A stretch of DNA of 64,000 nucleotides from positions 128,001 through 192,000 of the forward strand of contig JAWACY010000001.1 of the NCBI GenBank assembly GCA_038896535.1. The letters run 5' to 3'. Shown piece after piece: positions 25,038 through 52,175 of this stretch (position 1 is its first letter; each line of letters begins with the position of its first letter). Source of the DNA: Candidatus Anstonellales archaeon. Its GTDB lineage: Archaea; Micrarchaeota; Micrarchaeia; Anstonellales; J096. The notes below the pieces were generated by a model. The model was given only the letters and a program-made list of their open reading frames with translations. It did no database searches and was not told where the DNA came from. Both the position numbers and the translations under genes were made by a program.

Positions 25038-25435
25038 GTAAGAAGGCAAATTAACTTATACACACGCCTTCTTACAAACATCCCGCCCCTATTATACGCT
25101 TGTGGAAGAAGGCGCTAACCCTTATACACACGCCTTCTTACAATCTTCCAGGTAAGAAGGCAAATTAACTTATACACATGCCTTCTTACAATCTTCCAAC
25201 CCCTATTATTCCCTGTGGTAAGAAGGCAAATTGACTGATAAACATGCCTTCTTACAAACATCCCACCCCTATTATTCCCTGTGGTAAGAAGGCGCTAACC
25301 CTTATACACACGCCTTCTTACAATCTTCCAGGTAAGAAGGCAAATTGACTGATAAACATGCCTTCTTACAAACATCCCACCCCTATTATTCCCTGTGGTA
25401 AGAAGGCGCTAACCCTTATACACACGCCTTCTTAC
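25038..25435 (+). repeat. Hairpin array 1: seven 38-nt units GTAAGAAGGC-N18-GCCTTCTTAC with 28- or 10-nt linkers
   Basis: Units start at 25038, 25104, 25152, 25218, 25284, 25332 and 25398; begins 4 nt after tRNA-Thr. Confidence 0.97.
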
Positions 25436-25645
25436 AAATATACAACTACTATTATCACCTCGATTTATTATAAACACGGCCAGAGTTGAGGATTAATAAT
25501 ATAAGCAAATAGTCAAAGAAAAGATAGAAATTATGGCCTTAACTATTTTGATATTATTTTAAGCGCCTGCTTTCTGCCCTTCAAGTCAGAGAAAAAATAA
25601 AAAAGAAAAAATTTTAGCCTTAGTCAGCAATATTTTAAACTGCTA

Positions 25646-26119
25646 TTATGGACATACAACTCTTAAAGGTGTTGTGCCAACTATTGTGTAATTCACTGTA
25701 CTTGGTGGGTAACCATATGTCAAAACCATTTGGAACTCTTTTAATTGCCCTGAATCTGCTGCTGCGCAAACTGTTGATGTAAAGTTCACATTAACATCTG
25801 CCGTATTTCCGGCAGTTATGTTTTTTGGCAATCCTGCGCTGTTTGCTGTTCCATCTAAGCTTACTGCTCTTAATTCTATTTTCTTAACATCTTTGTTTTG
25901 TATGCTCATTGTCAAGTTATTTGTGCCAACTGGAGAATAAGCAACTATGCCCAATGGAACTTGTCCACTCCAATAGCCCTTACTCTGATCAACCAAGCTC
26001 TTTGTACCAAATCCAGAGAAGTTTCCTAACAAGAAAATCACTAACAAAGCTACAACTAATACTGCTGCAAAGATTACTAAATACTCTGTAGAACCTTGTC
26101 CTTTCATACTCTCACCCAT
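25646..26119 (-). CDS. Type IV pilin with class III signal peptide, probable major pilin
   Basis: MKG|QGSTEYL followed by a hydrophobic helix; Asn/Thr-rich body with a Cys pair; divergent from the pilus operon. Confidence 0.85.
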   Translation of the reverse strand: MGESMKGQGSTEYLVIFAAVLVVALLVIFLLGNFSGFGTKSLVDQSKGYWSGQVPLGIVAYSPVGTNNLTMSIQNKDVKKIELRAVSLDGTANSAGLPKNITAGNTADVNVNFTSTVCAAADSGQLKEFQMVLTYGYPPSTVNYTIVGTTPLRVVCP

Positions 26120-26273
26120 GAAAGAAAATTATAGTAAACATTTAAAAATTTTTTCATTTTTGGTATAAAAAAAATAAATAAATGCTTATTATATTCCAGC
26201 AAGCATAACCTTTAACAACTCTTATAGTTTGATAAAAAGGAAAAGTTTAAATATAAATTTGCGGTATTTAAAC

Positions 26274-27062
26274 ATGCAAAAAAAGAAGAAAAAAAAGGAA
26301 GCAACATTAGAAGAAAAAGTAAAAAGCCTAGAAAGCCTTAAGGAGTTATTCAAACCTTCTTTAAAACTTCCAAATGTAAAAAGAGTAAAAAGCTATTTAT
26401 CTGGATTGGATGAAATGCTTTATGGAGGCCTTGTCGATGGATCAACAATAATTGTTGTTGGTGGCCCTGGAAGTGGAAAAACCATAATGATGCTTCAATA
26501 TTGTTATGCTGCTGCTATGAATGGAGAAAAAGCCCTGTTCATATCGACAAATGAACCAATAAGTAAACTAAAAAAACATGCTGAGCTATTCGGCTGGAAA
26601 GACAATAAAAATGTTAAATTTCTATTTTACAGTCCATATGAGATAAAAGAAATTATAAAAGAGGGAGGGACATCTTTACTTGATTTAATAACTAGTGAGG
26701 GCATAACAAAAATTGCACTTGACTCATTGACTGCTATAAAAATATCATTTAATACACAGCAAGAAGAAAATGAATTTATATACAAATTTTTCGACTTATT
26801 CTATAGAATGCCAGTAACATCAATATTGACAATGGAGAAAACTGATAATGAATCTTTTACAAGATGGGAGTTTATGGCTGATGGAATAATAAAACTTAGA
26901 GTCTATGCTCTTGAGGATTATAGAATTAGGGGCTTAGAAATAATAAAGATGAGGGACACACCATTTTACGAGCATCTTGTTCCATATTATATTACTTCAA
27001 AAGGCATACAGATTTTGCCACAAGGAAGGGTATTCAGGCCAAAGGAGGAAATACTTTTATGA
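26274..27062 (+). CDS. KaiC/RecA-like ATPase (ArlH/FlaH-like)
   Basis: GLDEML.GG, GGPGSGKT, DSLT, ADGII.L, R.LEI.KMR.T. Confidence 0.9.
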   Translation: MQKKKKKKEATLEEKVKSLESLKELFKPSLKLPNVKRVKSYLSGLDEMLYGGLVDGSTIIVVGGPGSGKTIMMLQYCYAAAMNGEKALFISTNEPISKLKKHAELFGWKDNKNVKFLFYSPYEIKEIIKEGGTSLLDLITSEGITKIALDSLTAIKISFNTQQEENEFIYKFFDLFYRMPVTSILTMEKTDNESFTRWEFMADGIIKLRVYALEDYRIRGLEIIKMRDTPFYEHLVPYYITSKGIQILPQGRVFRPKEEILL

Positions 27063-27448
27063 AAGCCCAAGCATCTGTTGAAAGTATGGCTATGCTATCT
27101 TTATCTTTAATGATAATTCTTTCCTTATCTGGAATAGCATTTTTACTGTTAGGAACATTAAACGAAAACTTAGAGAAGCAGAGGGCTTTAGTTTTTATTG
27201 ATAAACTTCAAACAAACTCTTTATCTGTTTATATGCAGGGCCAAGGAGCTAGTAAAAAAGTATTATTATATTTCCCAAATGAAGCAAATATTACAACAAA
27301 CAACACAATTGTAATATTAAATATAAAAAATAGTACAATTGCAAGGGATTTTGGATTTAACATCACTATTGCCCAGCCTTCATCATCTGGTTATGTTGAA
27401 TTTATAATAAACAATTCTGGAACAAGCGTGGGGGTTTATCCTCAATGA
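27059..27448 (+). CDS. Minor pilin-like protein (class III signal peptide)
   Basis: MKA|QASVE followed by a hydrophobic helix. Confidence 0.8.
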   Translation: MKAQASVESMAMLSLSLMIILSLSGIAFLLLGTLNENLEKQRALVFIDKLQTNSLSVYMQGQGASKKVLLYFPNEANITTNNTIVILNIKNSTIARDFGFNITIAQPSSSGYVEFIINNSGTSVGVYPQ

Positions 27449-27813
27449 GTAACAGTATAGAAACAATTGTGATTTTTGGTTTTCTTTTAAGCATTGTAAT
27501 GCTATCTATAGTCATTGGACAGGGCAATATGCAAGTAATGGCATTAAAAAAAGACAAGAGCGATTTAATGTATGCAAATTCTGTATTGAATAATGCAATA
27601 ACCCAACTTGTTTCATGCTCTGATAATTGTAGCATTAATGTAAGCTTTCCTTCTTACATCATAATAAATAAGAGCTCAGATACATGTATTTTAAGCAATG
27701 GCAATAACTTTTTGAATTGCTTTATACCATTTAACAAAACATTCTATGTTAATGGGACTGTTTTTAGAATGAAAATAAATAATACAAATTTTGGGGTTGA
27801 TGTAATTGAATAG
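27445..27813 (+). CDS. Pilin-like protein
   Basis: N-terminal SIE plus hydrophobic helix; Asn-rich; overlaps both neighbours. Confidence 0.65.
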   Translation: MSNSIETIVIFGFLLSIVMLSIVIGQGNMQVMALKKDKSDLMYANSVLNNAITQLVSCSDNCSINVSFPSYIIINKSSDTCILSNGNNFLNCFIPFNKTFYVNGTVFRMKINNTNFGVDVIE

Positions 27814-28255
27814 CATCGATGCCTTAATGTCCTTTTTCATATTTATTTCCTTATTTCTCTTCATAAACGGCATTGTGAATAATACAAACATAGAGATATC
27901 TTTACATGAGAAAAGCATAAATTTTGATCCAATAAGAGCGTTTTGTTTTCCTGGAGATGGCGCTTTATGGGATATAAATACTGGTTATGCTGGCTTTGGC
28001 AAATATTATAATTTTTGCACATTAGAAAAAAGGAAACTTGATTATTATATATCATTGCTTTCAACAAATAATGAAAATGCAAAAGAAATGCTTGGCATAG
28101 CAGGAAAAAACATTACATTAACAATAAGTGATATAAATGGCACATTATACTACAATTATGCAGAAACATTATCTAATGACAGAGATATTTATACAATATA
28201 TGGAACTTTTAATAACAGGCCAGTAAAAATAAAAATACAAATAAGCAGTGGTTAA
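27806..28255 (+). CDS. Pilin-like protein
   Basis: N-terminal SID plus hydrophobic helix; lies in the pilus operon. Confidence 0.65.
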   Translation: MNSIDALMSFFIFISLFLFINGIVNNTNIEISLHEKSINFDPIRAFCFPGDGALWDINTGYAGFGKYYNFCTLEKRKLDYYISLLSTNNENAKEMLGIAGKNITLTISDINGTLYYNYAETLSNDRDIYTIYGTFNNRPVKIKIQISSG

Positions 28256-28672
28256 ATGAAAAAGGGCCTTTATTTTTCTCTTGATGGTCTTATTGCAATA
28301 ATAATATTATCTTTATTCATATCAAATGTTATAATGCTTGACCAAAATAATGGAGATAAAAGCATTGAAGCATATTCATTAAGCCTTGCAGCAATGATGG
28401 AAAAAAACATGCCATTGAGTAATTTATCAAATAATACAACAATGTTAAACTTCTTTAACAGCTTAGATAGCCAATATTGTTTTTATTATGAATTCTATGG
28501 CTTCCCGCCCCCTCAGAATAACCCAAGGCTTTTATTCAATGTTACAAGAACTGGCTGCAATATTTCAGCAAATTATTACCAGTTGTTCAGGAGCATATTG
28601 AATGATCAAGATTTAAGAGTAAGAGATTTATCTTATGGCTTTAGGATGAGAGTATGGCAAAAGCTTTCATAA
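28256..28672 (+). CDS. Minor pilin-like protein (class III signal peptide)
   Basis: MKKG|LYFSLD followed by a hydrophobic helix. Confidence 0.75.
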   Translation: MKKGLYFSLDGLIAIIILSLFISNVIMLDQNNGDKSIEAYSLSLAAMMEKNMPLSNLSNNTTMLNFFNSLDSQYCFYYEFYGFPPPQNNPRLLFNVTRTGCNISANYYQLFRSILNDQDLRVRDLSYGFRMRVWQKLS

Positions 28673-29544
28673 ATCATCTGTACTTAATATTTTATGTCTT
28701 GCCAATGCTTGCTTTGATATATGCTATTAATTTAAATATGCAAAGGGCACAAGAATCAAGTTATACAACATTAAATTATATAACAGATGATATTATAGAA
28801 GATTTGAAAACAATTTTATATGCAAATACAGATAAAAAAATAACAATACAAAGGCAGGGAAACCTTGCCATTATAAGTGTATTTGATATAATGAATGATT
28901 CAAAACTTGAAGGTATGAGTTTAAATCAAAATATAAATAAATACACTTCAAAGGTTTTGCCAAAATTTATAGTTTTTTATGGACTAACCACATATGCCTT
29001 TTCAATTAATTGGCAAAATGAGCCAACACTATTTTTTACAAATGGAATGAGCCAGAGAACTTATACGCCAGGGAATAATGTTAGATATGATTTTTTTGGA
29101 AATGCAAATACAAGCATGATAAACCTTACAATAAATTATACAAATGGCATAATGCCTTTTGTAAAAATTTGCACATTTAATGGCTTGCCAATATCATGTA
29201 ATGGCGGCACATATGGGGCAGGGACATTTAATGTAACGCTAAATTATACAGATAATATAGGCAATGCATTATTTATATTCAGAATAAATCCTAATGTTGC
29301 GAATACATTTCAAATAACTTATATAGGAGCCCAGACAAGGACAACAACATTAAACATGGGCTTAGTTGGTTCAAATCAAAGATCTATAAGATATAATATA
29401 AATCAGCAAGCGTTTGCCATAATAAATGCAACATTTATAAATAATGAGCAAAATTACATTATGGCATATCTTCCAGGAAGTATTAATTTAACACAAGCAA
29501 CATTTTCAAAAAGCATTAATATTATTCCTATAGAGGAGGGGTAG
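28654..29544 (+). CDS. Membrane-anchored extracellular pilus-associated protein
   Basis: N-terminal TM segment; Asn/Thr-rich beta body with many N-x-S/T sequons. Confidence 0.65.
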   Translation: MAKAFINHLYLIFYVLPMLALIYAINLNMQRAQESSYTTLNYITDDIIEDLKTILYANTDKKITIQRQGNLAIISVFDIMNDSKLEGMSLNQNINKYTSKVLPKFIVFYGLTTYAFSINWQNEPTLFFTNGMSQRTYTPGNNVRYDFFGNANTSMINLTINYTNGIMPFVKICTFNGLPISCNGGTYGAGTFNVTLNYTDNIGNALFIFRINPNVANTFQITYIGAQTRTTTLNMGLVGSNQRSIRYNINQQAFAIINATFINNEQNYIMAYLPGSINLTQATFSKSINIIPIEEG

Positions 29545-29550
29545 AAATAA

Positions 29551-31257
29551 ATGATGATTAAAACTAAGATTGATAAACTTTTTGAAATGCAGGAAAAGGC
29601 CATTACATTGAAAAATGCAATAGAGCTAACTGATATAAGCAAGAAAGAACTTGAAGACATATTAGAAGCATTAGAAAATGTTGGGGCCATTGAGCTTTAT
29701 TATTTGCCATTACCATTTACGCAACCAAGAATAAAAATAAAGCCATTTTATTATGAATATGAGAAACAGAAAATAGGGAAAGAAAAAGAAAAATATGAAA
29801 TAAAGAGCAATGATGGGCTTTATAAAGCTGAGATAAGCATAATGGAAAGCAAAGATGGTTTAACTTATAACATTGATTATCCAATACCAGGGCCTTTAAC
29901 TTCACAGTATTTAAATGCAATAGCAGATAAAATTTTTGCAACATTGCCAGCTGAAACATTTCTTATAAGTGAAGAAGAGAGAAAACAAAAACTTTATGAA
30001 AAGCAAGTAGAGGAGGCATTAAAATTTTTTAAGGATATAACATACAATGAGGAAGATGCATTATTGCTTGCTGGAATATTAAAAAGTCAAAGTTTTGGCA
30101 TAGGGAAAATAGATTACATACTAGCAGATCCAGAAATAGAGGAGGTAGTAATAAATAATGCCTTTACTCCCCTCATAGTATATCATAGAAGGTATGGATG
30201 GCTAAAAACAAATATAAAAATTGGCAGTGAAGAAGAAATTGTAAATATATCATCAAAGATAGCAAGAAGGTCTGGCAGGCAGATAACAATTTTAACCCCA
30301 TTACTTGATGCACATCTCATAAAAGGGGAGAGAGTTAATGCTACTTTATATCCTATAAGCATAAGAGGGAATACTATAACAATAAGGAAATTCTCAGAAG
30401 AGCCATATACAATACCATTCTTAATAAAAAATGGCACTTTGAATGTTGATATGGCCTCTTTATTATGGCAAGCAATAGAACTTGAAATGAACATGCTCAT
30501 TATAGGTGGAACTGCAACTGGTAAAACAACATTGCTAAATGCATTATTGATGCTTATAAATAATAAGCAAAGGCTCATAACGATTGAAGATACAAAAGAA
30601 CTTAATTTACCAGAAACATTTGAAAACTATGTTTCATTGCTAACAAGAGAACCAAATCCAGAAGGGCTTGGACAAGTAACACTGCTTGATTTAATGATAA
30701 ATGCTTTGAGGATGAGGCCAGATAGAATTATTGTAGGAGAAATTAGAAGAAAAGAGGAAGCAATAGTTTTGTTTGAGGCAATGCATACAGGGCATAGTGT
30801 CTATTCAACATTCCATGCTGATACAGCTTATATAGCAGTAAAGAGATTAACAGAAGAGCCTATTGCTCTTCCTTATCAAGAACTCGAAGTTTTAGATTTC
30901 TTTGTTACATTAAGGAGGGATAAAAAAACTGGATTAAGAAGAATATTTGAAATAGGCCAATTTTTAAGTAAAGAAGCAAGCACAGTAACTGAGAGGGTTT
31001 ATGTACATAGAGCAAGAACAGACACTTTTGACTATCTTGGCCTGCCAGTAAAGTACATAGAAAAAATTGCATTATATACTGGCATGACAAATGAAGAAAT
31101 AGAAGAGGATATAAAACAAAAATCAGAAATATTGAAATATGCTGTAAAACATAATTTTATAAGCCCATTAGCATTTAGCAATTTTATACAAAATTATTAT
31201 GAAGACAATACATTTTATGACAAAATTAAAAAAGGCCTAATTAAAGTGAGAAAATGA
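29551..31257 (+). CDS. Type IV pilus assembly ATPase (VirB11/TadA family)
   Basis: GGTATGKTT, TIEDT.EL, LRMRPDRIIVGE.R, AMHTGH...STFHA. Confidence 0.95.
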   Translation: MMIKTKIDKLFEMQEKAITLKNAIELTDISKKELEDILEALENVGAIELYYLPLPFTQPRIKIKPFYYEYEKQKIGKEKEKYEIKSNDGLYKAEISIMESKDGLTYNIDYPIPGPLTSQYLNAIADKIFATLPAETFLISEEERKQKLYEKQVEEALKFFKDITYNEEDALLLAGILKSQSFGIGKIDYILADPEIEEVVINNAFTPLIVYHRRYGWLKTNIKIGSEEEIVNISSKIARRSGRQITILTPLLDAHLIKGERVNATLYPISIRGNTITIRKFSEEPYTIPFLIKNGTLNVDMASLLWQAIELEMNMLIIGGTATGKTTLLNALLMLINNKQRLITIEDTKELNLPETFENYVSLLTREPNPEGLGQVTLLDLMINALRMRPDRIIVGEIRRKEEAIVLFEAMHTGHSVYSTFHADTAYIAVKRLTEEPIALPYQELEVLDFFVTLRRDKKTGLRRIFEIGQFLSKEASTVTERVYVHRARTDTFDYLGLPVKYIEKIALYTGMTNEEIEEDIKQKSEILKYAVKHNFISPLAFSNFIQNYYEDNTFYDKIKKGLIKVRK

Positions 31258-32102
31258 TATTTAACGCTGAAAAACACAAATTTTTGAGGAGGTTTGAATT
31301 TATAGGTAACCTTCTTATCAGAATATTTCCATTCGTTAAGCATGACTTATTAGTATCGGGAGAAAAAGTGAAGCCATCACTTTTTATGACTGCTCTGTTC
31401 TTGAATGCCCTCTTTATCCCTCTATTTATATCAATATCCATATATTTATATTTTGGCCCTCAATCTATATTTATAACAATTATTTCATTCTTTTATTTAT
31501 TTCTCTTTGTTTTTATATTTGGACTTGCTTACCCTAGAGCTAAAATAGTAGATTTGAGTAAAAGTATTGATAAGGATTTAAGCATTTTATTAAGTGATAT
31601 TATTATACAATTAAAAAGCGGCGTATTGCTTTATGATGCATTAGTAAGTGCTGGCACAGCAAATTATGGGCTCGCAAGCAAAAAAATAAATGAGATGATA
31701 AGAAAGATTAGCCAAGGTTATTCAGAAAGAGCTGCAATGCAAGAACTGGCATTAACAATTAGGAGCGAGTTTATGAAAACAACTATGTGGAGGATTGTAT
31801 CTTCTTTAAGAATAGGGGGAAATGTTGTTTATTTGCTTGATGCTATAACAAAAACTGTGAAAGAATATAATGAAAGAGAAATGAAAATGTATATAGATTT
31901 AATAAATATCGGCCTTATGTTTTTTTTACTTTTAGGGGTCGTGCTGCCATCAATAGCGATAATATCAGGCTTAATAATATTATCTGCTAGTGGGATACCA
32001 TTTTCAGTCCATTTATTAATTGCTATATATGCATCCTCTTTAGTATTGCAATTATTTATAATAGGCTATATAAGCGTATCTAAACCAGTTGTGATGAGAT
32101 GA
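31254..32102 (+). CDS. TadB/TadC-like pilus platform membrane protein
   Basis: TM pair, cytoplasmic T2SSF-like domain (LKSG..L.DAL...YG..S), TM pair. Confidence 0.85.
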   Translation: MIFNAEKHKFLRRFEFIGNLLIRIFPFVKHDLLVSGEKVKPSLFMTALFLNALFIPLFISISIYLYFGPQSIFITIISFFYLFLFVFIFGLAYPRAKIVDLSKSIDKDLSILLSDIIIQLKSGVLLYDALVSAGTANYGLASKKINEMIRKISQGYSERAAMQELALTIRSEFMKTTMWRIVSSLRIGGNVVYLLDAITKTVKEYNEREMKMYIDLINIGLMFFLLLGVVLPSIAIISGLIILSASGIPFSVHLLIAIYASSLVLQLFIIGYISVSKPVVMR

Positions 32103-33088
32103 GCTTTTATTCAACAATAGGAAGTATTATTCCTGAAAGTTTATTAAAAAATGTTAAAAGAATGCTTGTATACGCTGGTATTAAAGAAGATCCAGAAACA
32201 TATATAGGGAGGATATTATTTCTAATGTTATTATTGCTTTTAATACCGCCATTATTAAAGCTTGTATTAGACCTTTATGGCCTTTATTTCCTTAATAATG
32301 CAATAGTATTAATATTAGAGCTTTTTTTATTGGTTTTAACTCCTTTTGCTTTTTATGCACATCTCTCTTTTATAATATCTTCAAGAGCAGAAAGAGCAGA
32401 AGAAGTTTTTCCAGATTTTTTATATGATTTAGGAGCAAACCTTAATAGTGGCATGCCTGTTTTCCAAGCTTTCTTGGCAAGTGCATTGAAAAAAGAATTT
32501 GGCGTTTTATCAGATGAAGCAAAGGATGTGTATGAGAAATACCAGACAGAAAATTTAAACAAAATGTTTGATGAGTTAGCATTACGCTTTGATTCAAGGC
32601 ATATTGAAAATTTTGTAAGATTTTTTGAGAGATCCATTGCATTAGGTGGAAGCATGTCAGATCTATTGCAAAGCTATGCTGAGGAAATGAAATATATATT
32701 AAACATGAGACAAGAATTGAAGCAAAGAACATTAAATTATGTTGTTTTTATAGCAATAATAACGGTATTTATTTTTCCATTCTTGCTTTCAATTGCCTAT
32801 ACTTATATAACTATGATGAGCTCATTATATGGGAATGTTAAAGTGCAATCATCAGTTGGAATTTCTATTTTAACACCAATTATATCAATAACAAAAGAAG
32901 AGATGTACATACTAAGCATTATTTTTATATTTCTATCAGGGCTTCTTACAAGCTTTTTGATATCTGTTTTGAGAAAAGGAAAAGTGATCTTTTTCTTGAA
33001 ATATGTTTTTATAATATGGCTTATAACTTATACAATATTTTTCCTTTCATTAAATGTACTTGCAAAAATTCTCATTTTAAAAACCTAA
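32099..33088 (+). CDS. TadC-like pilus platform membrane protein
   Basis: E..FPDFL.....L.SGM...A....EFG.LS.E, GG....L. Confidence 0.88.
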   Translation: MSFYSTIGSIIPESLLKNVKRMLVYAGIKEDPETYIGRILFLMLLLLLIPPLLKLVLDLYGLYFLNNAIVLILELFLLVLTPFAFYAHLSFIISSRAERAEEVFPDFLYDLGANLNSGMPVFQAFLASALKKEFGVLSDEAKDVYEKYQTENLNKMFDELALRFDSRHIENFVRFFERSIALGGSMSDLLQSYAEEMKYILNMRQELKQRTLNYVVFIAIITVFIFPFLLSIAYTYITMMSSLYGNVKVQSSVGISILTPIISITKEEMYILSIIFIFLSGLLTSFLISVLRKGKVIFFLKYVFIIWLITYTIFFLSLNVLAKILILKT

Positions 33089-37373: not shown

Positions 37374-37377
37374 ATAA

Positions 37378-37846: not shown

Positions 37847-38812
37847 ATGGATTTAATAGCAGAAATTAAAGAACAAGTTGAAAAAAACATCAAGGATTAC
37901 ATAGAAAAATTTGAGACGAGGAAAGACATAATAGATGTTATTTATGAATATATATCAAGAGATGCAAAGAGGATAAGGCCCGTAATAATGATCTTGAGTG
38001 CCAAGGCAATTGATAAGCAAAGGTTAAAAATATTTGAAAAAACTGCAATAGCTATTGAGCTTTTTCATAATTTTACACTAATACATGATGATATAGAGGA
38101 TGGCTCATATTATAGAAGAGGTAAGCCGACATTACATGTTTTATATGGTGAGCCACTAGCAATAAATTTTGGAGATGCCTTATTTAATGTTGTTTGGCAT
38201 TCTATTATAGAATCAGGATTAACAAAAAATGAAATGCTTTTAATAAATAAAACATTCCAGGAAGTTGTTGAAGGCCAGCATATAGAGATAAGTGCAGTAC
38301 ATGAAGAAAGGTTTGATCTGGCTTATGAGGATTATTATGAGATAGCAAGCAAAAAAACAGGAGCTCTTATTGCTTTATGCATAGCTTTACCATTTTATAA
38401 AAAAAGCAAAAAAACGTTTAAAAAGGTTTATAAAAGCGTTAAAGAGCTTGGAATAGCATTCCAGATTTTGGATGATGTTCTGAATCTAACAGGAGATTTT
38501 GAGAAATATAAGAAAAAAATAGGTGATGACATAACAGAAGGCAAAAGAACGCTTATGGTTATATACACAATGAAAAACTCAAAAGATAAAGATGAATTAA
38601 AAGCAATATTGTCAAGCCATACAAAAGATGAAGAAAAAATAAAGAGGGCAATACAAATTATAAAAGAAAGCGGGGCAATAGAATTTGCAAAGAATAAGGC
38701 AAAAGAACTTGTTGATAAAAACCTGCCTATCTTAAAGCAAGCTTTTCCTGATTGCGAAGAAAAAGAAGCCCTGATGTCAATAGTTAACATGTTCATAAAT
38801 AGAGAAAAATAA
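37847..38812 (+). CDS. idsA: Polyprenyl (GGPP-type) diphosphate synthase
   Basis: KRIRP, LIHDDIED...RRG, GQ, KTG, FQI.DD..N, GDDITEGK. Confidence 0.93.
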   Translation: MDLIAEIKEQVEKNIKDYIEKFETRKDIIDVIYEYISRDAKRIRPVIMILSAKAIDKQRLKIFEKTAIAIELFHNFTLIHDDIEDGSYYRRGKPTLHVLYGEPLAINFGDALFNVVWHSIIESGLTKNEMLLINKTFQEVVEGQHIEISAVHEERFDLAYEDYYEIASKKTGALIALCIALPFYKKSKKTFKKVYKSVKELGIAFQILDDVLNLTGDFEKYKKKIGDDITEGKRTLMVIYTMKNSKDKDELKAILSSHTKDEEKIKRAIQIIKESGAIEFAKNKAKELVDKNLPILKQAFPDCEEKEALMSIVNMFINREK

Positions 38813-38818: not shown

Positions 38819-38988
38819 GTAAGAAGGCAAATTAACTTATACACATGCCTTCTTACAATCATCCAACCCCTATTAAGCCCTGTAGTAAGAAGGCGCTTAC
38901 CCTTATACACACGCCTTCTTACAATCATCCAACCCCTATTATACGCTTTGGGAAGAAGACACTAACCCTGATAAACTTGCTTTCTTAA
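38819..38988 (+). repeat. Hairpin array 2: three units, the last degenerate
   Basis: Units at 38819, 38885 and 38951 with 28-nt linkers; begins 6 nt after the idsA stop codon. Confidence 0.95.
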
Positions 38989-40282: not shown

Positions 40283-40318
40283 AGGCAAATTACTATTAAA
40301 CATGCTTCTTACAAACAT
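40283..40318 (+). repeat. Degenerate solo copy of the hairpin-array unit
   Basis: AGGC-AAATTACTATTAAACAT-GC-TTCTTAC-AAACA matches the array loop, right arm and linker start. Confidence 0.7.
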
Positions 40319-42070: not shown

Positions 42071-42118
42071 AAATTAAAATGAAGGATTGTTTTTAAATAT
42101 TTGACTTAAAATATATTG

Positions 42119-43692: not shown

Positions 43693-43696
43693 TAGA

Positions 43697-44686: not shown

Positions 44687-44687
44687 T

Positions 44688-45737
44688 TCATTTCATGTTT
44701 ACCCAATTTATCTCATAATATATGTTATCGCTGTTTTCAAGTTTTATCCTTTCTGCCTTATAAAATGTTACTGCTGCTTCTCTATCTACCAAGCATAATA
44801 GTAAAGGCAGATTGTTTTTTATGCAATAATCTAGAGCACTAGCAAGCATGGACCCTCTGACAAAATCTTGCTGTTTCAATATTTTTAATACATAAATTTC
44901 ATTATTTCTCTTTATCAGCCCATCTGGTTTAAATTTCACAATCTTTTCCTTTGATTTTGGTATTGCTATTATATAACTCTTTTTTACACCATGACAAACC
45001 CTTATTGCTCTGCTCCATTGTTCAGCATCAAGGAAAAGGCCTTTAGGAAAAACATGAATTATATGCTTTGAATGCATGCCTTTATCTGGTTGTGCATTTG
45101 GTTCATATATTCTGAAATCGCCACCAAATTTGAACCCAGTTTTTAATACATAACCTTTGCTCCTCCAGTCTTTATAAATACTATAAATATCATCAAAAAA
45201 TCTGTAATAAGGTCTAAAGCTGCCTGATAAAACATTTAATTCTTTCAAAAATTGGCATTCATAAAAATCAAGTAAAAAAAGGTTCCCATAATGTTTCTTA
45301 TAACTTCCATATTGTCCAAACCAATATTTATAATAAAGATCCTTATCCCCTTTTATAATTGCAAACTGCTTATCCTGGCCCAAAACAACAGCTTTTGCAT
45401 CTATATTAAAATCATGCGATTTATAAATTTTTATTACCCCATCAGTGATGCTCGCTTTTATGTCTCTTTCTTGAATGTCTTTTATATATTTAAAACCTTT
45501 CATAAAAAGTTCTCTGAATACAACGTAGTTAGATATATCAAAACTTGGCATTTCATTTAATTCAAAGTCAATTGAAAATACTTCATTTAATAAGAAAGCC
45601 TCGTTAATATTAAGTATTAATTCATCTTTATGAAATGTTCCTATGCCTCTAGCATATATTCTATTTTTTTCACTTTCTGTGCCTTTATATGAAAATAGCC
45701 CATTGCCCTTAATAGAGATTTTTCCTTTTAATTGCAT
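44688..45737 (-). CDS. endA: tRNA-splicing endonuclease, three-unit epsilon2-type
   Basis: Catalytic unit in the middle (G.KFGGDFRIY, HS, RVCHGVKK), extra N-terminal unit, C-terminal beta unit with VDRE...TFY, and a GQYGSYK loop. Confidence 0.88.
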   Translation of the reverse strand: MQLKGKISIKGNGLFSYKGTESEKNRIYARGIGTFHKDELILNINEAFLLNEVFSIDFELNEMPSFDISNYVVFRELFMKGFKYIKDIQERDIKASITDGVIKIYKSHDFNIDAKAVVLGQDKQFAIIKGDKDLYYKYWFGQYGSYKKHYGNLFLLDFYECQFLKELNVLSGSFRPYYRFFDDIYSIYKDWRSKGYVLKTGFKFGGDFRIYEPNAQPDKGMHSKHIIHVFPKGLFLDAEQWSRAIRVCHGVKKSYIIAIPKSKEKIVKFKPDGLIKRNNEIYVLKILKQQDFVRGSMLASALDYCIKNNLPLLLCLVDREAAVTFYKAERIKLENSDNIYYEINWVNMK

Positions 45738-45741
45738 TCTA

Positions 45742-46308
45742 TCACTTTTTAGCAAAAAGCAAATATGCTGTATGCACTATCCCTTTATTTTCAGGTCTTG
45801 TTGAATTTTCATCTATTTTATAATCAATATGCAATGTTGATAAAACAAAAATGTGTTTAAATATTGCTCTTGCCTTTTTGCATGTTTCTTTTACTTGCTC
45901 TATATTTGGCAAAAAGCAAACAAAAAAACCACCAGCTTTCAAGTTTTCAAAAGCCCTCAATGCCATATTATGGGCATCTGGAATATCAGCAATGACAACA
46001 TCTACATCTTTTTCATCAAAATATTTGCCATCCTGATTTTTTAATATTACATTATTTGCCTTTATCAATTTCATATTATATTTTAAAATTTCAAATGCAT
46101 CCTCTCTTATTTCATATGCATAAACCCTATTTGCAATTCTTGACAGATAATAGGTTAGAAAACCATTCCCTGCTCCTACTTCAACAACAATGCTTTCTTT
46201 TCCAATATCAGCATAAGCAATAATTGCTCCTACATCTTTTGGCAGTATTACTGCCATTTTTCTTTTGAATTTCTTTAATGCATCTGGCATATGAAAATCA
46301 AATTTCAT
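45742..46308 (-). CDS. trmI: tRNA (adenine-57/58-N1) methyltransferase TrmI-like, lacking the N-terminal domain
   Basis: VILPKD...I, VEVGAGNG.LT, YE.RED, D.PD, P..EQV, TRP....HT.YL. Confidence 0.85.
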   Translation of the reverse strand: MKFDFHMPDALKKFKRKMAVILPKDVGAIIAYADIGKESIVVEVGAGNGFLTYYLSRIANRVYAYEIREDAFEILKYNMKLIKANNVILKNQDGKYFDEKDVDVVIADIPDAHNMALRAFENLKAGGFFVCFLPNIEQVKETCKKARAIFKHIFVLSTLHIDYKIDENSTRPENKGIVHTAYLLFAKK

Positions 46309-48971
46309 TTTCTTTCCCCATACTCTTTTATGAATTTTTCATATACAAATAATAAATCTTTTGTTATTGATGGCTTTCTTCCTGCAAGTAATGAAGATAA
46401 TTCCTGTTTTGTTAGTGTATCTATCTTCTTGCCTGTTTGCATACTTTTTTGAAATAATTTTAGTTTTATTTCCTCACACAATGCCTTTATATCAGCACTT
46501 GAATAACCTTCTGTTGCATTTGCTAAATAATCAAGATCAAATGATGAAGAGAACTTCCCGAGGTGGATTGCAAATATCTGTTTTCTCACTTCCTTAGATG
46601 GTGGAGGTATGTATATAATTCTATCAAACCTGCCAGGCCTTAATAAAGCCGGGTCAAGTGTTTGCGGTAAATTTGTCGCGCCCACAACAATGACATTTTT
46701 AAGATTCTTCAATCCATCCATTTCTTGTAATAACTGCCCCATCAATGGGTTTGACATGCCAGTTCTTGCAGGAGCAACTGTTTCTATTTCATCTATAAAT
46801 ATGATTGATGGTGCATTGTCCTTTGCCCTGTTAAATGCTTCTTTTAGCACTGTTGCTGCTTCATAATAACCTTTTTTCAGCAATTCAGCTCCACTCAAAA
46901 ATATTATCGGCACTTTAAACTCTCCTGCTGCTGCCTTCATTATGTATGTTTTTCCAGTTCCAGGAGGGCCAAATAAAAGCAATCCTTTTGGCGGCCTGAG
47001 TTGAAACTCCTCAATAAGCTGTCCATATTTTAATGGCAATTCAATTGCTTCTTTTAATGTTTTCTTAACATCTTCCATATCAGCAACATCACTAAATGTC
47101 AATTCTGGTGGTTTTTCTTCTTTTTCTTTTGATGTCTTCCTTTCAAATTCAAGCTTAAACTGCTCATGTTCTTCAAGTAAGCTTGCACTGACAGAAGGTT
47201 TTGTTATTTTTATTATTCCTTCTAAATCATTCATTGTTATTGGCTCTATATTCCCTGTCTTGCTCGCTCTTTTTGCAGCAATGCGCTTTGCTTCCTGCAC
47301 GACATTTGATATGTCTGCTGGAGTATATCTTTCAGTCATTTTTGCAAGCTTTTTAAAATCTATATTTTCATTCGGTACTTGGTTTATATAATATTTAAAT
47401 AATAACTCCCTCCCCCTTTCATCTGGTACACCCATGTATATAACTTTATCTATCCTCCCTGGCCTTAATAAAGCAGGATCAATCATGTTTGGCACATTTG
47501 TAGCAGCAACAAATATTATTGGCTTCTTTGATACAACCCCCTCAAGTTCTTGTAATAAAGTGTTTAGAACTCTTGGAGTTACTTCATCTAAGCCGCCACC
47601 TGCCCTTTTTTTTGCTATTGCATCAATTTCGTCAAAAAATAAAACAACTGGCGCCTTTTTTCTTGCTAGCTCAAATATTTGGCTTACGTTTTTCTCGCTT
47701 TCCCCATAATATGGAGACAAAAGCTGAGATGTTTTTACATAAAGAAATGGAAAGTTCAATTCTTTTGCAAGCGCCTTCATTAAGTATGTTTTTCCAGTTC
47801 CAGGAGGGCCAAATAAAAGCAATCCTTTTGGCGGTTTTAGCCCATAAGCATATGCAATCTTAGGATTTTCCAAAGGTGTTTTTATCGATTCTATTAATTC
47901 AGCTTTTAATTCGTCATAATTTGCTACATCTTCAAAGCCTTTTAAATTGCTCTCAACGCTTAAATCCTGTACACCAAAAACAGAGAATGGCTGAACCTCC
48001 TTTAATCTCCTCTCTATCCTTTCTCTGCTAAATGTATAGCCTTGCTTGTTAAGGAATATGACAAGCCAGTAAGATAATAGGCTATAAAAAATGATCTCAA
48101 TTTTATAGGCAAATCCAAATACGCGATAAAATAAGAAGTAAAATACTGGTATTGTTAGTAAAACCATTGCTGCTCTTGCCTCTGCTTCTTTATCTCTATA
48201 AAAGCCAGTATAGAATGCTGAGACATAGAGCAACGCTGTCCAGTATATGATTTGCAATATTCCCCCCTGATCTATTAATATTGAAGACAGGTTAAAGAAT
48301 GCTATCTCAAATGTCTTCATCACAGAACCAGCAGCCCTAAAATCAAACAAATTTGAGAATGCTTGTTGAAGTGCATCATAAAATTTGAATATGTCTATTG
48401 CTTGTTGTCTCTGCAATATTTGATCTGTAATGACCCTCTGGTGGTTTATTGGCAGGTATGCGCTATTATCAATTTGCCAGAATGAAGAAAGCAATAATAT
48501 GAATATCACAGACGGCATTGATAGGAGTATGGCCCTAAATGAACCGAGATGCAAGCCAGCAATGAAAAGTGCAAAGTAAATCAAACCGCCAAGATAAGAA
48601 AATGGAAATTGAGCAAAAGGCATTAAAATGACGATGTGCAAAAATGCAATCTCTTTCCAGGAAGTCCATACTCTGAATAGTATGAGAGAAAAAATGATGA
48701 GATAAAACCATCCAAAAACAGTGCTTTGGTACATTGTTGTTAGAACATTTATTCCTGCAAGTGCAATAATACCATATTCTGGTTTTTTATTATATGCAAA
48801 ATATGCTGGTATAAGTGCAATGAACGGGGCAATGAGTAAAGGAAATAATGGCAAAGCAGTGAATGATGCTAATGAGGCAAGATAAACAATGATGGCATTA
48901 ACAAGTCTGTCATTCGCAAGCAAAGCACTTGTATATGCTTTTATTGTTACTTGACTTAATGCAGTTGCCAT
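46305..48971 (-). CDS. Polytopic membrane protein fused to two AAA+ ATPase modules
   Basis: About 310-aa hydrophobic N-terminus, then two modules each with [11 protein letters not shown] and ALLRPGR. Confidence 0.9.
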   Translation of the reverse strand: MATALSQVTIKAYTSALLANDRLVNAIIVYLASLASFTALPLFPLLIAPFIALIPAYFAYNKKPEYGIIALAGINVLTTMYQSTVFGWFYLIIFSLILFRVWTSWKEIAFLHIVILMPFAQFPFSYLGGLIYFALFIAGLHLGSFRAILLSMPSVIFILLLSSFWQIDNSAYLPINHQRVITDQILQRQQAIDIFKFYDALQQAFSNLFDFRAAGSVMKTFEIAFFNLSSILIDQGGILQIIYWTALLYVSAFYTGFYRDKEAEARAAMVLLTIPVFYFLFYRVFGFAYKIEIIFYSLLSYWLVIFLNKQGYTFSRERIERRLKEVQPFSVFGVQDLSVESNLKGFEDVANYDELKAELIESIKTPLENPKIAYAYGLKPPKGLLLFGPPGTGKTYLMKALAKELNFPFLYVKTSQLLSPYYGESEKNVSQIFELARKKAPVVLFFDEIDAIAKKRAGGGLDEVTPRVLNTLLQELEGVVSKKPIIFVAATNVPNMIDPALLRPGRIDKVIYMGVPDERGRELLFKYYINQVPNENIDFKKLAKMTERYTPADISNVVQEAKRIAAKRASKTGNIEPITMNDLEGIIKITKPSVSASLLEEHEQFKLEFERKTSKEKEEKPPELTFSDVADMEDVKKTLKEAIELPLKYGQLIEEFQLRPPKGLLLFGPPGTGKTYIMKAAAGEFKVPIIFLSGAELLKKGYYEAATVLKEAFNRAKDNAPSIIFIDEIETVAPARTGMSNPLMGQLLQEMDGLKNLKNVIVVGATNLPQTLDPALLRPGRFDRIIYIPPPSKEVRKQIFAIHLGKFSSSFDLDYLANATEGYSSADIKALCEEIKLKLFQKSMQTGKKIDTLTKQELSSLLAGRKPSITKDLLFVYEKFIKEYGERK

Positions 48972-49029
48972 AAAACCATATATGTAAAATCTTTATAAAT
49001 ATCTGTGCATAAATATTTCTGGTGGGAAA

Positions 49030-49557
49030 ATGACAAAAGAAAGAAAAAAGAAGAGATTTTTTGGAATGGATGATATGGACAAAGACATATTCAGCCCGTT
49101 TTTTCATGATGATATAGAAAAAATCATGGAAGAAATGAGAAGAATGATGCTAAAGCTTATGGAAGATATTGGAGAGGAAGCAGAAGAAAAGAAAAATGTA
49201 AAAAGCAAAGTTTATGGCATTAATATAACAATTGGTCCAGAAGGAGAAGTAGATATAAAACAGTTTGGCGATTTTCCGACAAAGGTTAAAGAGAAGTCAT
49301 TAAGGGATACTGATATAAGACAACCGCTTGTTGAAGTGCATAGAGGAGAAAAAGAGTTAAGGGTAGTAGCTGAATTGCCCGGCGTTGAAGAAAAAGATAT
49401 AAATACAGAAATAAAAGAAAAGAAGCTTATTATAAAAGCAAAAAATAAAATAACGGGAAGAGATTATTATAGGGAAATTGACCTGCCTTATAATGCAACC
49501 ATAAAAAAGAAAACGTACAAAAATGGCATTCTTGAAATAGATTTAGATAGGCAATAA
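49030..49557 (+). CDS. hsp20: Small heat shock protein (archaeal Hsp20)
   Basis: VYG..I.IGP.G...I..FG, PLVEV, VVAELPGV...DI, YKNGILEI. Confidence 0.92.
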   Translation: MTKERKKKRFFGMDDMDKDIFSPFFHDDIEKIMEEMRRMMLKLMEDIGEEAEEKKNVKSKVYGINITIGPEGEVDIKQFGDFPTKVKEKSLRDTDIRQPLVEVHRGEKELRVVAELPGVEEKDINTEIKEKKLIIKAKNKITGRDYYREIDLPYNATIKKKTYKNGILEIDLDRQ

Positions 49558-49578
49558 TAAAATTTATCTGGTGATTTT

Positions 49579-51324
49579 GTGGATATAAGAAGCCCGATCA
49601 TTACAGTGTTAGGACACGTTGACCATGGTAAAACAAGTTTGTTAGATGCAATAAGGGGTTCAAGAGTAGCAGCAAAGGAATCTGGCGGTATAACTCAGAT
49701 GATTGGAGCAAGTTTAGTAACAAAAGAAAGGATAATTGAACTTAGCAAAGATCTTAAAGACAGATTTAAGTTTGAATTAGTTATCCCTGGGCTTCTTTTT
49801 ATTGACACTCCGGGGCACGAAGTTTTTACTAATTTAAGATATAGGGGAGGAGCAATTGCTGATATGGCAATAGTTGTTATAGATATTAAACAAGGAGTAC
49901 AACCACAAACAATAGAGAGCATAAATGTGTTAAAAGATAATAAGACACCATTTGTAATAGCAGCTAATAAAATAGACCTAATTACTAGCTGGCACAATAC
50001 TGGAGAAACAAGTTTCATAAAAGCTTTAGAAAAACAAAAGGAAATAACAAAACAAGAATTGGATAACCTAATTTATACTTTAATTGGCCAGCTTAGTTAT
50101 GAAGGATTTGATGCTGAGAGAGTTGACAGAATAAACGATTTTACAAAACAGCTTTGTCTCTTGCCAATATCAGCGAGGACAAAAGAGGGCATAGCAGAGC
50201 TTTTACTAATTGTTTCAGGCCTATCGCAAAAATATTTGAAAGATAGGTTATATGTAAAAAGCAAGGATGTTAAAGGCAGTGTTATGGAGATAAAAGAAGA
50301 GAAGGGCATAGGCACAACGCTTGATTGCATTATACATGACGGCATAGTCGAAGAAGGGCAGGAGCTATATTTTCTTACAAAGAACGGTGTGATAAAAAGA
50401 AAAATAAAGGCAATATTAATGCCAAATGTTTCATCTAATTATGCAAAAGAGAAATATAGACGAGTAGAAAGAGTAGTTGCTGCTGCTGGGATAAAAATAC
50501 TTGCATCTGATATAGAAGATGTATTGCCAGGAAGCCCCGTATTTTCTAATTACTCAGAAGAAATAGTAGAAATTGAAAAGATGCTAAAAAAATTCATATT
50601 TGAATCGGAGCAGGATGGAATTGTAGTTAAAGCAGATTCATTAGGTAGTATAGAAGCACTTTATAACCTATTAAATAAAAACAATATAAAAATAGCAAAG
50701 CTTGACATAGGGCCAGTGAATAAAGACGATATTATTTTTGCTTCTTCAATGGCAAAAAAGAACAGGATGCTTGGAATAATAATAAATTTTAATCTTCCAT
50801 TATCAAAAAATATTGAAGAGGAAGCAAGAAATAATGACGTAAGGATAATAAGTTCTGATATCATATATAAGATTCCGGAAGTTTTTTTTGAAGTACAAAA
50901 GCAAATAAAAGATGAATTAGAAAAAGAAATAGGGACAAAAGCACCAAGGCCATGTATAATAAAAGCATTAAAAGGATTCTTTTTCAGAATAAGCAAGCCA
51001 GCAATATTTGGTGTAGAGGTTGTTGAAGGAACATTAAAAGTTGGCACTACTTTAATGGATGAAAAAGGCAATATTATTGGACAAGTAAAATCAATACAGC
51101 AAGAAAAAACATCCTTGAAAGAGGCATTAAAGGGCAGCAAGGTTGCAATAAGCGTTGAAGAGGCAGTTTTAGGAAAAGATGTTTTTGAACAACAAGTTCT
51201 CTATTCATATTTGGATAAATCTGTTATTGAGGCTTGGGAAAATAGCAATATATTAAGTGAAGAAGAGAAAGCATTACTTGAAGTAATAAAGGATATAATG
51301 AGAAAATATAAATTAACAAGATGA
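49579..51324 (+). CDS. infB: Translation initiation factor aIF5B
   Basis: RSPI..VLGHVDHGKTSLLD, GGITQ.IGA, DTPGHE.F, NKID, KAD.LGS.EAL. Confidence 0.97.
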   Translation: MDIRSPIITVLGHVDHGKTSLLDAIRGSRVAAKESGGITQMIGASLVTKERIIELSKDLKDRFKFELVIPGLLFIDTPGHEVFTNLRYRGGAIADMAIVVIDIKQGVQPQTIESINVLKDNKTPFVIAANKIDLITSWHNTGETSFIKALEKQKEITKQELDNLIYTLIGQLSYEGFDAERVDRINDFTKQLCLLPISARTKEGIAELLLIVSGLSQKYLKDRLYVKSKDVKGSVMEIKEEKGIGTTLDCIIHDGIVEEGQELYFLTKNGVIKRKIKAILMPNVSSNYAKEKYRRVERVVAAAGIKILASDIEDVLPGSPVFSNYSEEIVEIEKMLKKFIFESEQDGIVVKADSLGSIEALYNLLNKNNIKIAKLDIGPVNKDDIIFASSMAKKNRMLGIIINFNLPLSKNIEEEARNNDVRIISSDIIYKIPEVFFEVQKQIKDELEKEIGTKAPRPCIIKALKGFFFRISKPAIFGVEVVEGTLKVGTTLMDEKGNIIGQVKSIQQEKTSLKEALKGSKVAISVEEAVLGKDVFEQQVLYSYLDKSVIEAWENSNILSEEEKALLEVIKDIMRKYKLTR

Positions 51325-51328
51325 GTAT

Positions 51329-51718
51329 ATGAAAGTAAAATTCATTGATAAAGAAACAAAAAACAAAATTGCAGAAGTTGATGTGAAAACAAAAGCTGCC
51401 ATTAAATTTGCAAAAATAGGAAATAATAATATTATTGCTTATGAAAAAGGTGAAAAAACATTTATTGCTGGCTCATTTTGCAGTGCAATTTATGGCAGCG
51501 ATGAGCATATATATTGTGTTGATAGAGCCATTTTTGGCAAAGATAAATTAGCAGCAAGAGATATAGGGGAATGTATAAATTTTCTTGAATTCATGATTTT
51601 TTTATTTCCAAATGAAGAGTACTTTAAGCTAATAAAATTAGTATTTGAATTAGATAAATATTACTTAGAGAATATGCTAATAATAAATGGACTAAAGGGC
51701 CCTTTTGAATATTTATAA
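51329..51718 (+). CDS. Hypothetical protein
   Basis: ORF immediately downstream of infB. Confidence 0.65.
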   Translation: MKVKFIDKETKNKIAEVDVKTKAAIKFAKIGNNNIIAYEKGEKTFIAGSFCSAIYGSDEHIYCVDRAIFGKDKLAARDIGECINFLEFMIFLFPNEEYFKLIKLVFELDKYYLENMLIINGLKGPFEYL

Positions 51719-51768
51719 TTTATTAATTTATAAACTCAACAACCATGCAACACATAATTCGAAATATA

Positions 51769-52175
51769 CCAAGAAGGCGTGTTTATAAGCCAATTTGCCT
51801 TCTTCAACAAAGCTTATAATAGAGGTTGGAAGATTGTAAGAAGGCGCATATATAAGGGCATTGCCTTCTTACCACAGGGAATAATAATAGGGGTTGGATG
51901 TTTGTAAGAAGGCACGTATAATAGGGTTAGTGCCTTCTTACTACATGGAATAATAATAGGGGTTGGATGTTTGTAAGAAGGCACGTATAATAGGGTTAGT
52001 GCCTTCTTACCTGGAAGATTGTAAGAAGGCGTGTTTAATAGGGTAAGCGCCTTCTTACCACAGGGAATAATAATAGGGGCTGGATGTTTGTAAGAAGGCA
52101 CGTATAATAGGGTTAGTGCCTTCTTACCTGGAAGATTGTAAGAAGGCGTGTTTAATAGGGTTAGTGCCTTCTTAC
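51769..52175 (-). repeat. Hairpin array 3: seven units, the two distal ones degenerate, with 31-, 29- or 10-nt linkers
   Basis: Units at + coordinates 52138, 52090, 52021, 51973, 51904, 51836 and 51769; begins 2 nt after the tRNA-Leu 3' end. Confidence 0.97.

Follow-up and report, generated by a model that had tools for sequence, protein, structure and literature searches.

Our analysis was concerned with a family of hairpin repeats in a 64,000-nt stretch of DNA (the window) from a Candidatus Anstonellales archaeon (assembly GCA_038896535.1, contig JAWACY010000001.1, positions 128,001 to 192,000; coordinates below are those of the window unless a contig is named). The repeats form three arrays, two of which directly adjoin tRNA genes. 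Array 1 (25038-25435, plus strand) follows the gene for tRNA-Thr(CGU) (24962-25034, plus strand), which was identified by ARAGORN and, with 73 bits, by the Rfam model RF00005. Its first arm lies 4 nt past the discriminator base of this tRNA. The array has seven units, six of them exact and one with a single mismatch, and is followed by a decayed linker reaching to about position 25462. Array 3 (51769-52175, minus strand), delimited by pattern and mismatch searches, begins 2 nt past the end of tRNA-Leu(CAA) (52178-52287, minus strand). This tRNA carries a 25-nt intron and was recovered by ARAGORN with intron search (C1:180178-180287, complement) and by RF00005 with 41.3 bits. The seven units of array 3 read away from the tRNA and the most distal one (51769-51806) is decayed. 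Array 2 (38819-38988, plus strand) has three units, the third of which is decayed, and no adjoining tRNA; it is located 6 nt past the stop codon of a co-oriented open reading frame (ORF; 37847-38812). In addition, a BLAST search of the arrays against the array-masked genome detected a single decayed unit (40283-40318, plus strand) that lies between two minus-strand ORFs and is antisense to both. This remnant consists of a partial left arm, a 17-nt loop, a right arm lacking one base, and the start of a linker.

Searching the window for the pattern GTAAGAAGGC-N16-20-GCCTTCTTAC gave 14 exact matches compared to 0.00 expected from 100 dinucleotide-preserving shuffles, and three further units have one to two mismatches per arm (25104-25141, 38951-38988, and 51769-51806). 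A preliminary description of this DNA, which had been made from the sequence alone, had reported 17 units in three arrays (7+3+7) and a remnant near 40283, and both are borne out by our searches. Its loop length of 18 nt likewise holds for 16 of the 17 units, the exception being the unit at 51836-51872 with a loop of 17 nt. Reading of the window arrays reproduced the linker lengths of 10, 28, 29 or 31 nt, namely 28, 10, 28, 28, 10, and 28 nt in array 1, 28 and 28 nt in array 2, and 10, 31, 10, 31, 31, and 29 nt in array 3. Units within each array are arranged head-to-tail in one direction, with array 3 being the reverse complement of arrays 1 and 2. The repeats can therefore be confirmed as a real, dispersed and polarised hairpin family. 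What the preliminary description did not contain is the identity of the "upstream gene" of arrays 1 and 3, which is a tRNA in both cases. Array 1 shows a 114-nt period with 100% identity over 25217-25437 in Tandem Repeats Finder (TRF), which also gives a 34-nt sub-period, and elsewhere in the genome contig C2 ends within an array and contig C4 begins within one. Because of the identical 114-nt block and the contig ends inside arrays, the number of units may be in error where an array is made up of identical repeats.

Anchoring of the arrays to tRNA genes

The genome from which the window is taken (G000; 751,790 bp, coding density about 92% by a crude greedy ORF call) encodes 46 exact units, compared to none for a reversed control pattern. 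With up to two mismatches allowed per arm, 68 hits in 18 clusters were obtained, one cluster being an unrelated single hairpin. The remaining 17 clusters include the fragment on C4; with this contig-start fragment counted as the probable continuation of the contig-end array, the total comes to about 16 arrays with about 67 units. Twelve of these roughly 16 arrays start 0-4 nt past a tRNA 3′ end, contain one to seven units, and always read away from the tRNA. Seen from the tRNA genes, the arm pattern placed a first arm within about 20 nt of the gene end for 12 of 43. One more array is found 84 nt downstream of tRNA-Leu(UAA), and three arrays are not beside any tRNA. Since by our own arithmetic only about 3e-4 of the genome is located up to 5 nt downstream of the 43 tRNA ends, chance placement is excluded. 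The 13 host tRNAs belong to only five amino acid families, namely Leu (5 of 5), Ile (2 of 2), Arg (3 of 4), Thr (2 of 3), and Lys (1 of 2), which corresponds to a permutation p of 2e-5.

The arrays that are not beside a tRNA are less uniform in their context. Array 2 follows a co-oriented ORF, and of the two non-tRNA arrays outside the window one occupies a divergent promoter region and the other lies antisense between two co-directional genes. The earlier statement that all arrays have the same orientation relative to the upstream gene is thus correct for the three window arrays and fails for two of the three non-tRNA arrays genome-wide. Since the non-tRNA copies face either way, the orientation towards protein genes is not fixed.

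When tRNA-Thr and array 1 were folded together as a predicted RNA, one hairpin of 10-11 bp was obtained per unit (z = -9.55 vs 100 shuffles). For tRNAs without arrays, a run of at least four T is mostly found within about 40 nt of the tRNA end. The GTAAG-type arrays do not contain any run of four or more T and the first such run occurs beyond the array, at 511 and 540 nt for the two tRNA-abutting arrays of the window. Since there is no such run inside them, GTAAG-type arrays lie upstream of the first oligo-T terminator, and, as predicted from the positions of the T runs, the arrays are probably part of the tRNA transcription unit. A TATA- or promoter-like reading of the loops was also considered and dropped, the upstream regions of the 43 tRNAs being without a clear local consensus.

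Unit structure and related repeats in other genomes

A unit is composed of a 38-nt hairpin, with arms of 10 bp and a loop of 17-18 nt in which four positions (CT..TA) are invariant, and of a linker. The linker is either 10 nt or about 28 nt long, with a conserved C-rich box, TCTTCCA-N-CCCCTAT, being present in the long form. Watson-Crick pairing applies to all ten arm pairs in 53 of 70 candidate units. Among the 57 units with 18-nt loops (40 of them distinct), most arm positions have an information content of 1.8-2.0 bits and the loop positions other than the invariant CT..TA four one of 0.5-1.2 bits. The C-rich core is common to 41 long linkers (36 distinct), and a CCCTATTA-like motif occurs in both loop and long linker, in one orientation and with a spacing of about 33 bp. 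Three neighbouring arrays form a sub-family in which the outermost arm pair is changed from G-C to A-T. The 67 units hold 44 distinct loops. Six loop sequences are identical between different arrays, two of these being found in four arrays each, and other loops are duplicated inside a single array. These identical loops within and between arrays lead us to conclude that local tandem duplication and exchange between loci have both occurred.

Whether the linker might be a decayed tRNA 3′ end was also considered. The mean best score of linkers against tRNAs was 14.9 vs 12.85 ± 0.37 for shuffles, where the linkers are mutually non-independent. This idea was dropped, as the match comprises 10-11 nt, the excess is small, and the box is distinct from the tRNA-end copy in the related genome G006 described below. 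Neither a target-site duplication nor a copy of the tRNA end was seen at the G000 junctions.

Homologous cassettes are present in G006, which belongs to another genus of the same family and carries them at five of ten tRNA flanks examined. Here, the hairpin of a cassette has G/C arms and a loop of 17 nt, and the box known from the G000 linkers comes after it. With up to one mismatch the box gave 18 hits in G000 (control 0) and 22 in G006 (control 9), and the other 17 genomes of the family remained near the control level. The exact 15-mer of the box was found in four of 151 genomes of the order, twice in G000, 12 times in G006, and as single hits in two others. The hairpin motif of G000 was found in none of 40 relatives. 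Homology between the G000 and G006 units is based on these shared box counts and on direct reading, MAFFT having given no register alignment of the units. Judged by these motif counts, the repeat family is patchy, with presence in two genera and absence from their congeners. In G006, the last 18 nt of the tRNA are repeated exactly at the end of each of three cassettes behind tRNA-Ala(CGC) and of each of two behind tRNA-Thr(GGU). The array behind tRNA-Ala(GGC) holds an end copy of the Ala(CGC) type, so that a cassette has moved between isoacceptor genes. At a genome completeness of 93%, G006 gave no more than 22 tRNA matches, of which several are weak. An inverted T-arm copy within the G006 cassettes resembles a feature of G000, where the 84-nt insert between tRNA-Leu(UAA) and its array (G000:C1:207430-207512) terminates in a small palindrome that a T-arm-like segment forms with an inverted copy of itself.

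The congeners G001 and G002 contain hairpin arrays that are unrelated to those of G000 and have near-perfect stems of 10-13 bp with loops of 3-4 nt. Many different arm sequences occur in them, with complementarity being kept. These arrays start 0-2 nt past tRNA-Ala and tRNA-Pro in G001 (4 of 33 tRNA flanks examined) and past tRNA-Ala, tRNA-Val, tRNA-Ile, and tRNA-Pro in G002 (7 of 34). Of the hits to CTTCTT-N2-9-AAGAAG, 8 of 15 in G001 are located just downstream of five tRNA genes and 17 of 28 in G002 just downstream of eight. Two G.T compared to four A.C mispairs were counted in the stems of the two congeners, so that there is no G.U bias. No arrays were seen at any of 32 tRNA flanks in G009, from another genus. 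Similar short-loop hairpin arrays are encoded in G120 and G266, of another family, where they mostly do not adjoin tRNAs. In G120, a CTTCTT/AAGAAG hairpin is located inside the span of an intron-bearing tRNA match (G120:C21:7899-8040) and a second hairpin follows 16 nt downstream, which may represent a case of a hairpin repeat inside a tRNA intron. The wider pattern CTTCTT-N2-14-AAGAAG, applied to 301 genomes, led to these arrays in G120 and G266 but proved too unspecific for mapping the phenomenon. The 301 included unpublished genomes, and none of our conclusions depends on these.

Comparison with known repeats and searches for an enzyme

Repetitive extragenic palindromic (REP) elements and bacterial interspersed mosaic elements (BIMEs) are short extragenic palindromes that are species-specific, clustered, mostly located at the 3′ ends of transcription units, and present in tens of copies; the units of BIMEs alternate. 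REPINs are mobilised by REP-associated tyrosine transposases (RAYTs, of the Y1 HUH type), and the RAYT gene is typically flanked by REPs. The arrays of G000 are similar in having about 67 short extragenic palindromic units at about 16 intergenic loci, which are genome-specific, clustered, and mostly situated at 3′ ends of transcription units, and the resemblance to REP/BIME clusters pointed out in the preliminary description is fair as a comparison of architecture. They differ by their anchoring 0-4 nt behind tRNAs, by a large and partly conserved loop, and by the conserved box after the hairpin. Furthermore, no RAYT was found in the five genomes screened and the units are arranged head-to-tail and do not alternate, and for these two reasons we do not regard them as members of the REP/RAYT system.

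Repeats linked to tRNA genes in E. coli reportedly go back to Egan and Landy in 1978. These tRNA-linked repeats (TLRs) comprise 22 units at ten loci, with one to five units per locus directly downstream of tRNA or rRNA genes and in one transcription unit with them. The terminal 18-19 bp of each unit match the 3′ end of the upstream tRNA or rRNA identically (Stenum et al. 2021, PMC8144298). For most of them a function is not known; three are expressed as RNAs that undergo processing and interact with Hfq and CsrA. The arrays of G000 share with TLRs non-coding units directly behind tRNA genes, with one to several units per locus and around ten loci, and the G006 cassettes even show the hallmark of TLRs, an exact copy of the tRNA 3′ end. 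The G000 units, on the other hand, have no such copy of 18-19 nt, their best identity being 10-11 nt, and in the absence of it the G000 arrays are not TLRs in a strict sense. They are also archaeal, much shorter (48-69 nt), built on a perfect 10-bp hairpin, and without sequence similarity to TLRs.

A palindrome, CGTTA(N)9TAACG, has been described about 10 bp downstream of around half of the tRNA genes of Methanopyrus kandleri, for which the authors guessed a role in 3′ maturation (PMC5217627). This motif is likewise archaeal, genome-specific, and situated just behind a subset of tRNA genes. It is a single short palindrome in contrast to the arrays of 38-nt hairpins with linkers reported here, and the portions of that source at hand describe neither a box nor dispersal to non-tRNA sites. 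No published description of an archaeal equivalent of hairpin arrays behind tRNAs was found by full-text literature searches, with the Methanopyrus palindrome being the nearest. The arrays appear not to have been described before and to represent a counterpart, in archaea, to the REP elements and tRNA-linked repeats of bacteria. It should be mentioned that tRNA 3′ ends are also landing sites for integrative elements that carry genes. Similar to such elements and to integron attC cassettes, the repeats occupy the tRNA 3′ end, and in G006 the cassettes are serially stacked with a duplicated tRNA end that resembles attL/attR. They are, however, gene-less and only 50-120 nt in size, they were not accompanied by an integrase match in any of the genomes screened (see below), and in G000 there is no duplicated tRNA end.

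The preliminary description had suggested that a cognate protein of the repeats could be encoded elsewhere. We screened the four genomes of the genus and G006, which are 84-93% complete. Neither Y1_Tnp (PF01797) nor Phage_integrase (PF00589; tyrosine recombinases including the Xer type) had a match in the four genus genomes or in G006, with 14 of 14 control genomes matching the latter domain. TnpB (Cas12f1-like_TNB, zinc-ribbon domain) and RVT_1 (reverse transcriptase) had no match in the four genus genomes. The suggested HUH/RAYT-like protein and tyrosine recombinase are therefore without a match in five genomes. A gene tightly flanked by copies of the repeat, another proposal, does not exist in G000, where no two arrays are closer than about 7 kb. 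Cas6, also put forward, is encoded only once, within a type III CRISPR-Cas operon on another contig. As to a possible origin as a miniature inverted-repeat transposable element or insertion sequence, no duplication is visible at the junctions, and the screen, which covered TnpB, Y1, and RVT_1 but no DDE transposase families, gave no match. The idea of a casposase-like role for Cas1 was rejected, as Cas1, present in G000 and G001, is part of an ordinary CRISPR operon in G000, and as arrays also occur in G002, where Cas1 is missing.

The CRISPR locus of G000 is itself of some interest, as a complete-looking type III CRISPR-Cas system comprising Cas10 with an HD domain, RAMP proteins, Cas2, Cas1, and Cas6 (G000:C2:36000-54000) is encoded here in a DPANN genome of 0.75 Mb. 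Its array of seven copies of a 37-nt repeat, together with the cas operon at about 37.5-48 kb of C2, is unrelated to the hairpins. The hairpin arrays do share with CRISPR arrays regularly spaced, partly palindromic repeats, a polarised layout, and a decayed distal unit. They are nevertheless not CRISPR arrays, as had already been stated, since their loops and linkers are homologous to each other instead of being unique spacers, and the cas operon lies on another contig.

Searches for known families and for a wider distribution did not connect the repeats to any described group. With Rfam, only tRNAs reached the gathering threshold in the whole window, and a search of 24950-25480 with E values up to 1 gave nothing inside the array, so that a known RNA family, which would have spoken against a new repeat system, was not encountered. 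The possibility of guide RNAs was rejected after a BLAST search of the arrays against the array-masked genome, which yielded nothing beyond chance except for the remnant in the window. Viral contigs gave no hairpin matches and the box only as one hit per contig. Scans of public genomes and metagenomes with a 9+9-nt arm pattern gave, among the matches listed, only chance matches, namely hairpins occurring singly in bacteria that are unrelated and, in one metagenome, a repeat that is multi-copy and eukaryote-looking. The latter (L125, L131, L133, L136, L139, L150, L173, and L225) is an inverted-repeat element with microsatellites and telomere-like repeats, which has a 9-nt arm in common with the hairpins by chance.

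Interpretation of the arrays and further features of the window

The interpretation we favour, which we hold to be about evenly balanced between right and wrong, is that of a gene-less palindromic cassette which acts at the DNA level, is anchored to tRNA 3′ ends, grows in tandem, is exchanged between tRNA genes, and is transcribed passively within the pre-tRNA trailer. By analogy, such a cassette would be REP/BIME-like in form and TLR-like in place, and would work most like these two. Arrays would expand and contract through unequal recombination, or slippage, between identical arms. They would spread by copying between tRNA genes, through recombination or template switching that begins within or beside the conserved 3′ part of the tRNA, which should be easiest between isoacceptors, and arms and box would be kept constant as cis sites of the copying process or of a binding host factor. 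Arrays would further be transcribed as a long, structured pre-tRNA 3′ trailer and removed by RNase Z. The resulting RNA would then be a by-product, or at most an element for 3′ protection or insulation, and not the product of a dedicated small-RNA gene. We prefer this DNA-level reading because of the rapid turnover and patchiness of the repeats, the host tRNA sets that differ between species, and the non-tRNA copies in any orientation, as well as the recent duplications and the palindromes of the sister family, which are perfect and have no G.U bias. The uneven conservation of arms, four loop positions, and box, taken together with the exact junctions, shows that some factor reads these sequences.

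A number of observations are not easily reconciled with this interpretation. Conservation of sites inside the units is very uneven, with arms and four loop positions standing out from the rest of the loop, and the box is identical in 14 of 15 nt between two genera. Such sequence-specific constraint would be explained equally well by a functional RNA or by a protein-binding site. The placement 0-4 nt from the tRNA end is unexplained by neutrality alone. Likeness between the G000 linkers and the tRNA 3′ end is weak, with an identity of 10-11 nt, so that the homology for a recombination-driven spread is thin in this genome, and an enzyme or mechanism of spread was not found. Lastly, the non-Watson-Crick arm pairs of G000, read on the tRNA-sense strand, comprise 11 G.T/T.G, 2 A.C, and 12 G.A pairs, and this excess of G.T over A.C would weakly favour pairing at the RNA level. 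The apparent G.U bias is weak evidence, since many of these pairs copy one variant and only about six independent events are left.

Among the alternatives, functional small-RNA genes are conceivable, although we consider them somewhat unlikely. Here, a polycistron driven by the strong tRNA promoter would be cleaved by RNase Z after the tRNA, and perhaps after every helix as well, to release hairpin RNAs of about 48-66 nt, which a protein would bind via the arms, CT..TA, and the C-rich box, making them an archaeal analogue of TLR RNAs. The arrays do abut the tRNA processing site, and those of the GTAAG type contain no run of four or more T, but the host tRNA sets are wholly different between congeners and the sequence family is replaced altogether in G001 and G002. 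The hairpins are predicted to be stable, there is strong conservation at arm and loop positions, and the box is kept between genera; yet the family occurs in 2 of the 151 genomes of the order, has no Rfam match, and its loops and linkers show no complementarity elsewhere in the genome beyond chance. The 11 to 2 ratio of G.T over A.C on the tRNA-sense strand of G000 is likewise in favour of RNA genes and is not seen in the G001/G002 hairpins. The transcription, processing, and protein binding given for three E. coli TLRs (PMC8144298) set a precedent. Unit numbers varying from 1 to 7, and some copies lying antisense to neighbours or in a divergent promoter region, speak against RNA genes. Quite improbable in our view is a non-autonomous mobile element, inserted site-specifically behind tRNAs by an enzyme that went unrecognised and may be encoded by the genome, a virus or plasmid, or the host cell, with arms and box as recognition sites. 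The cassettes of G006 with their tRNA-end copies would then be serial insertions at a tRNA attachment site, and they are indeed bounded by exact tRNA 3′-end copies like att duplications, whereas in G000 there is neither a target-site duplication nor a tRNA-end copy. Arrays join tRNAs whose acceptor sequences are unrelated, and do so precisely and with polarity, the distribution is patchy with two genera present without their congeners, and the cis motifs are conserved. None of Y1_Tnp, Phage_integrase, TnpB, and RVT_1 was found in the four genus genomes, however, G006 is also without Y1_Tnp and Phage_integrase, Cas1 belongs to a standard CRISPR operon and is missing from the array-bearing G002, and viral contigs were devoid of hairpins, with single hits to the box only.

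We regard it as highly unlikely that the repeats are tandem double-stranded DNA sites for a dimeric protein that would, for example, take part in chromosome organisation, replication, or segregation, or form a boundary beside tRNA genes with high transcription. Invariant inverted half-sites of 10 bp at a fixed spacing of 18 bp would suit such a protein, as would the CCCTATTA-like motif, repeated with a single orientation and a period of about 33 bp in loop and long linker, and the 34-nt sub-period given by TRF. The congener arrays, however, vary in arm sequence and keep only complementarity, a candidate protein was not found, the family is missing from nearly all relatives, and binding of a protein leaves the start 0-4 nt after the tRNA unexplained. 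An assembly artefact or chance low-complexity sequence, finally, appears extremely improbable. One contig does end and another begin inside an array, and blocks of identical units could have been collapsed or expanded by the assembler, but there are about 16 independent loci with unique flanks, diverged units and 44 distinct loops, none of the shuffles gave a match, and three further assemblies have analogous arrays. Words sampled from a 10-kb stretch with array 1 in it were also found, to 76-99%, in the contigs of six other runs belonging to two studies, which is no proof for the array itself.

A more far-reaching idea, which goes beyond the DNA-level cassette favoured above and which we judge to be unlikely, is that DPANN archaea of this family contain gene-less palindromic mini-cassettes that home to the tRNA 3′ processing site without a known transposase or integrase, either via host machinery or as a production line for hairpin RNA. 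In the former case, template switching could, for example, be primed by a pre-tRNA that has been cut by RNase Z and sits in an R-loop, or tRNA ends could be the site of fold-back copying. In the latter, a tRNA-hairpin polycistron could yield abundant hairpin small RNAs that are bound by a dedicated protein via the arms and the C-rich box. If true, archaea would by either route possess tRNA-coupled genetic elements of a new type.

Apart from this idea, the arrays kept, mostly at tRNA ends, by a densely coding genome of 0.75 Mb, the different hairpin families at the same tRNA position in sister species, and the cassettes duplicating the tRNA end in a related genus point to a general, fast-evolving process coupled to tRNAs in DPANN archaea. 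The arrays thereby offer a tractable case for the spread of gene-less repeats without a transposase and a candidate source of abundant structured trailer RNAs, and they are a practical cause of assembly breaks and possibly of rearrangements in these genomes.

Some further features of the window are worth recording. Arrays 1 and 3 are mutually inverted and bracket about 26 kb, each being located beside an inward-facing tRNA. Upstream of tRNA-Thr, a putative orphan half-unit (24909-24930, plus strand) is composed of a left-arm-like 10-mer (24909-24918, one mismatch) and a loop-like start; the resemblance is weak and could be due to chance. Two tRNA genes of the window bear introns, tRNA-Cys(GCA) (19055-19142, plus strand) and the tRNA-Leu(CAA) at 52178-52287 on the minus strand. 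ARAGORN in its default setting mislabels the former and misses the latter, and both are recovered by the intron search and by Rfam.

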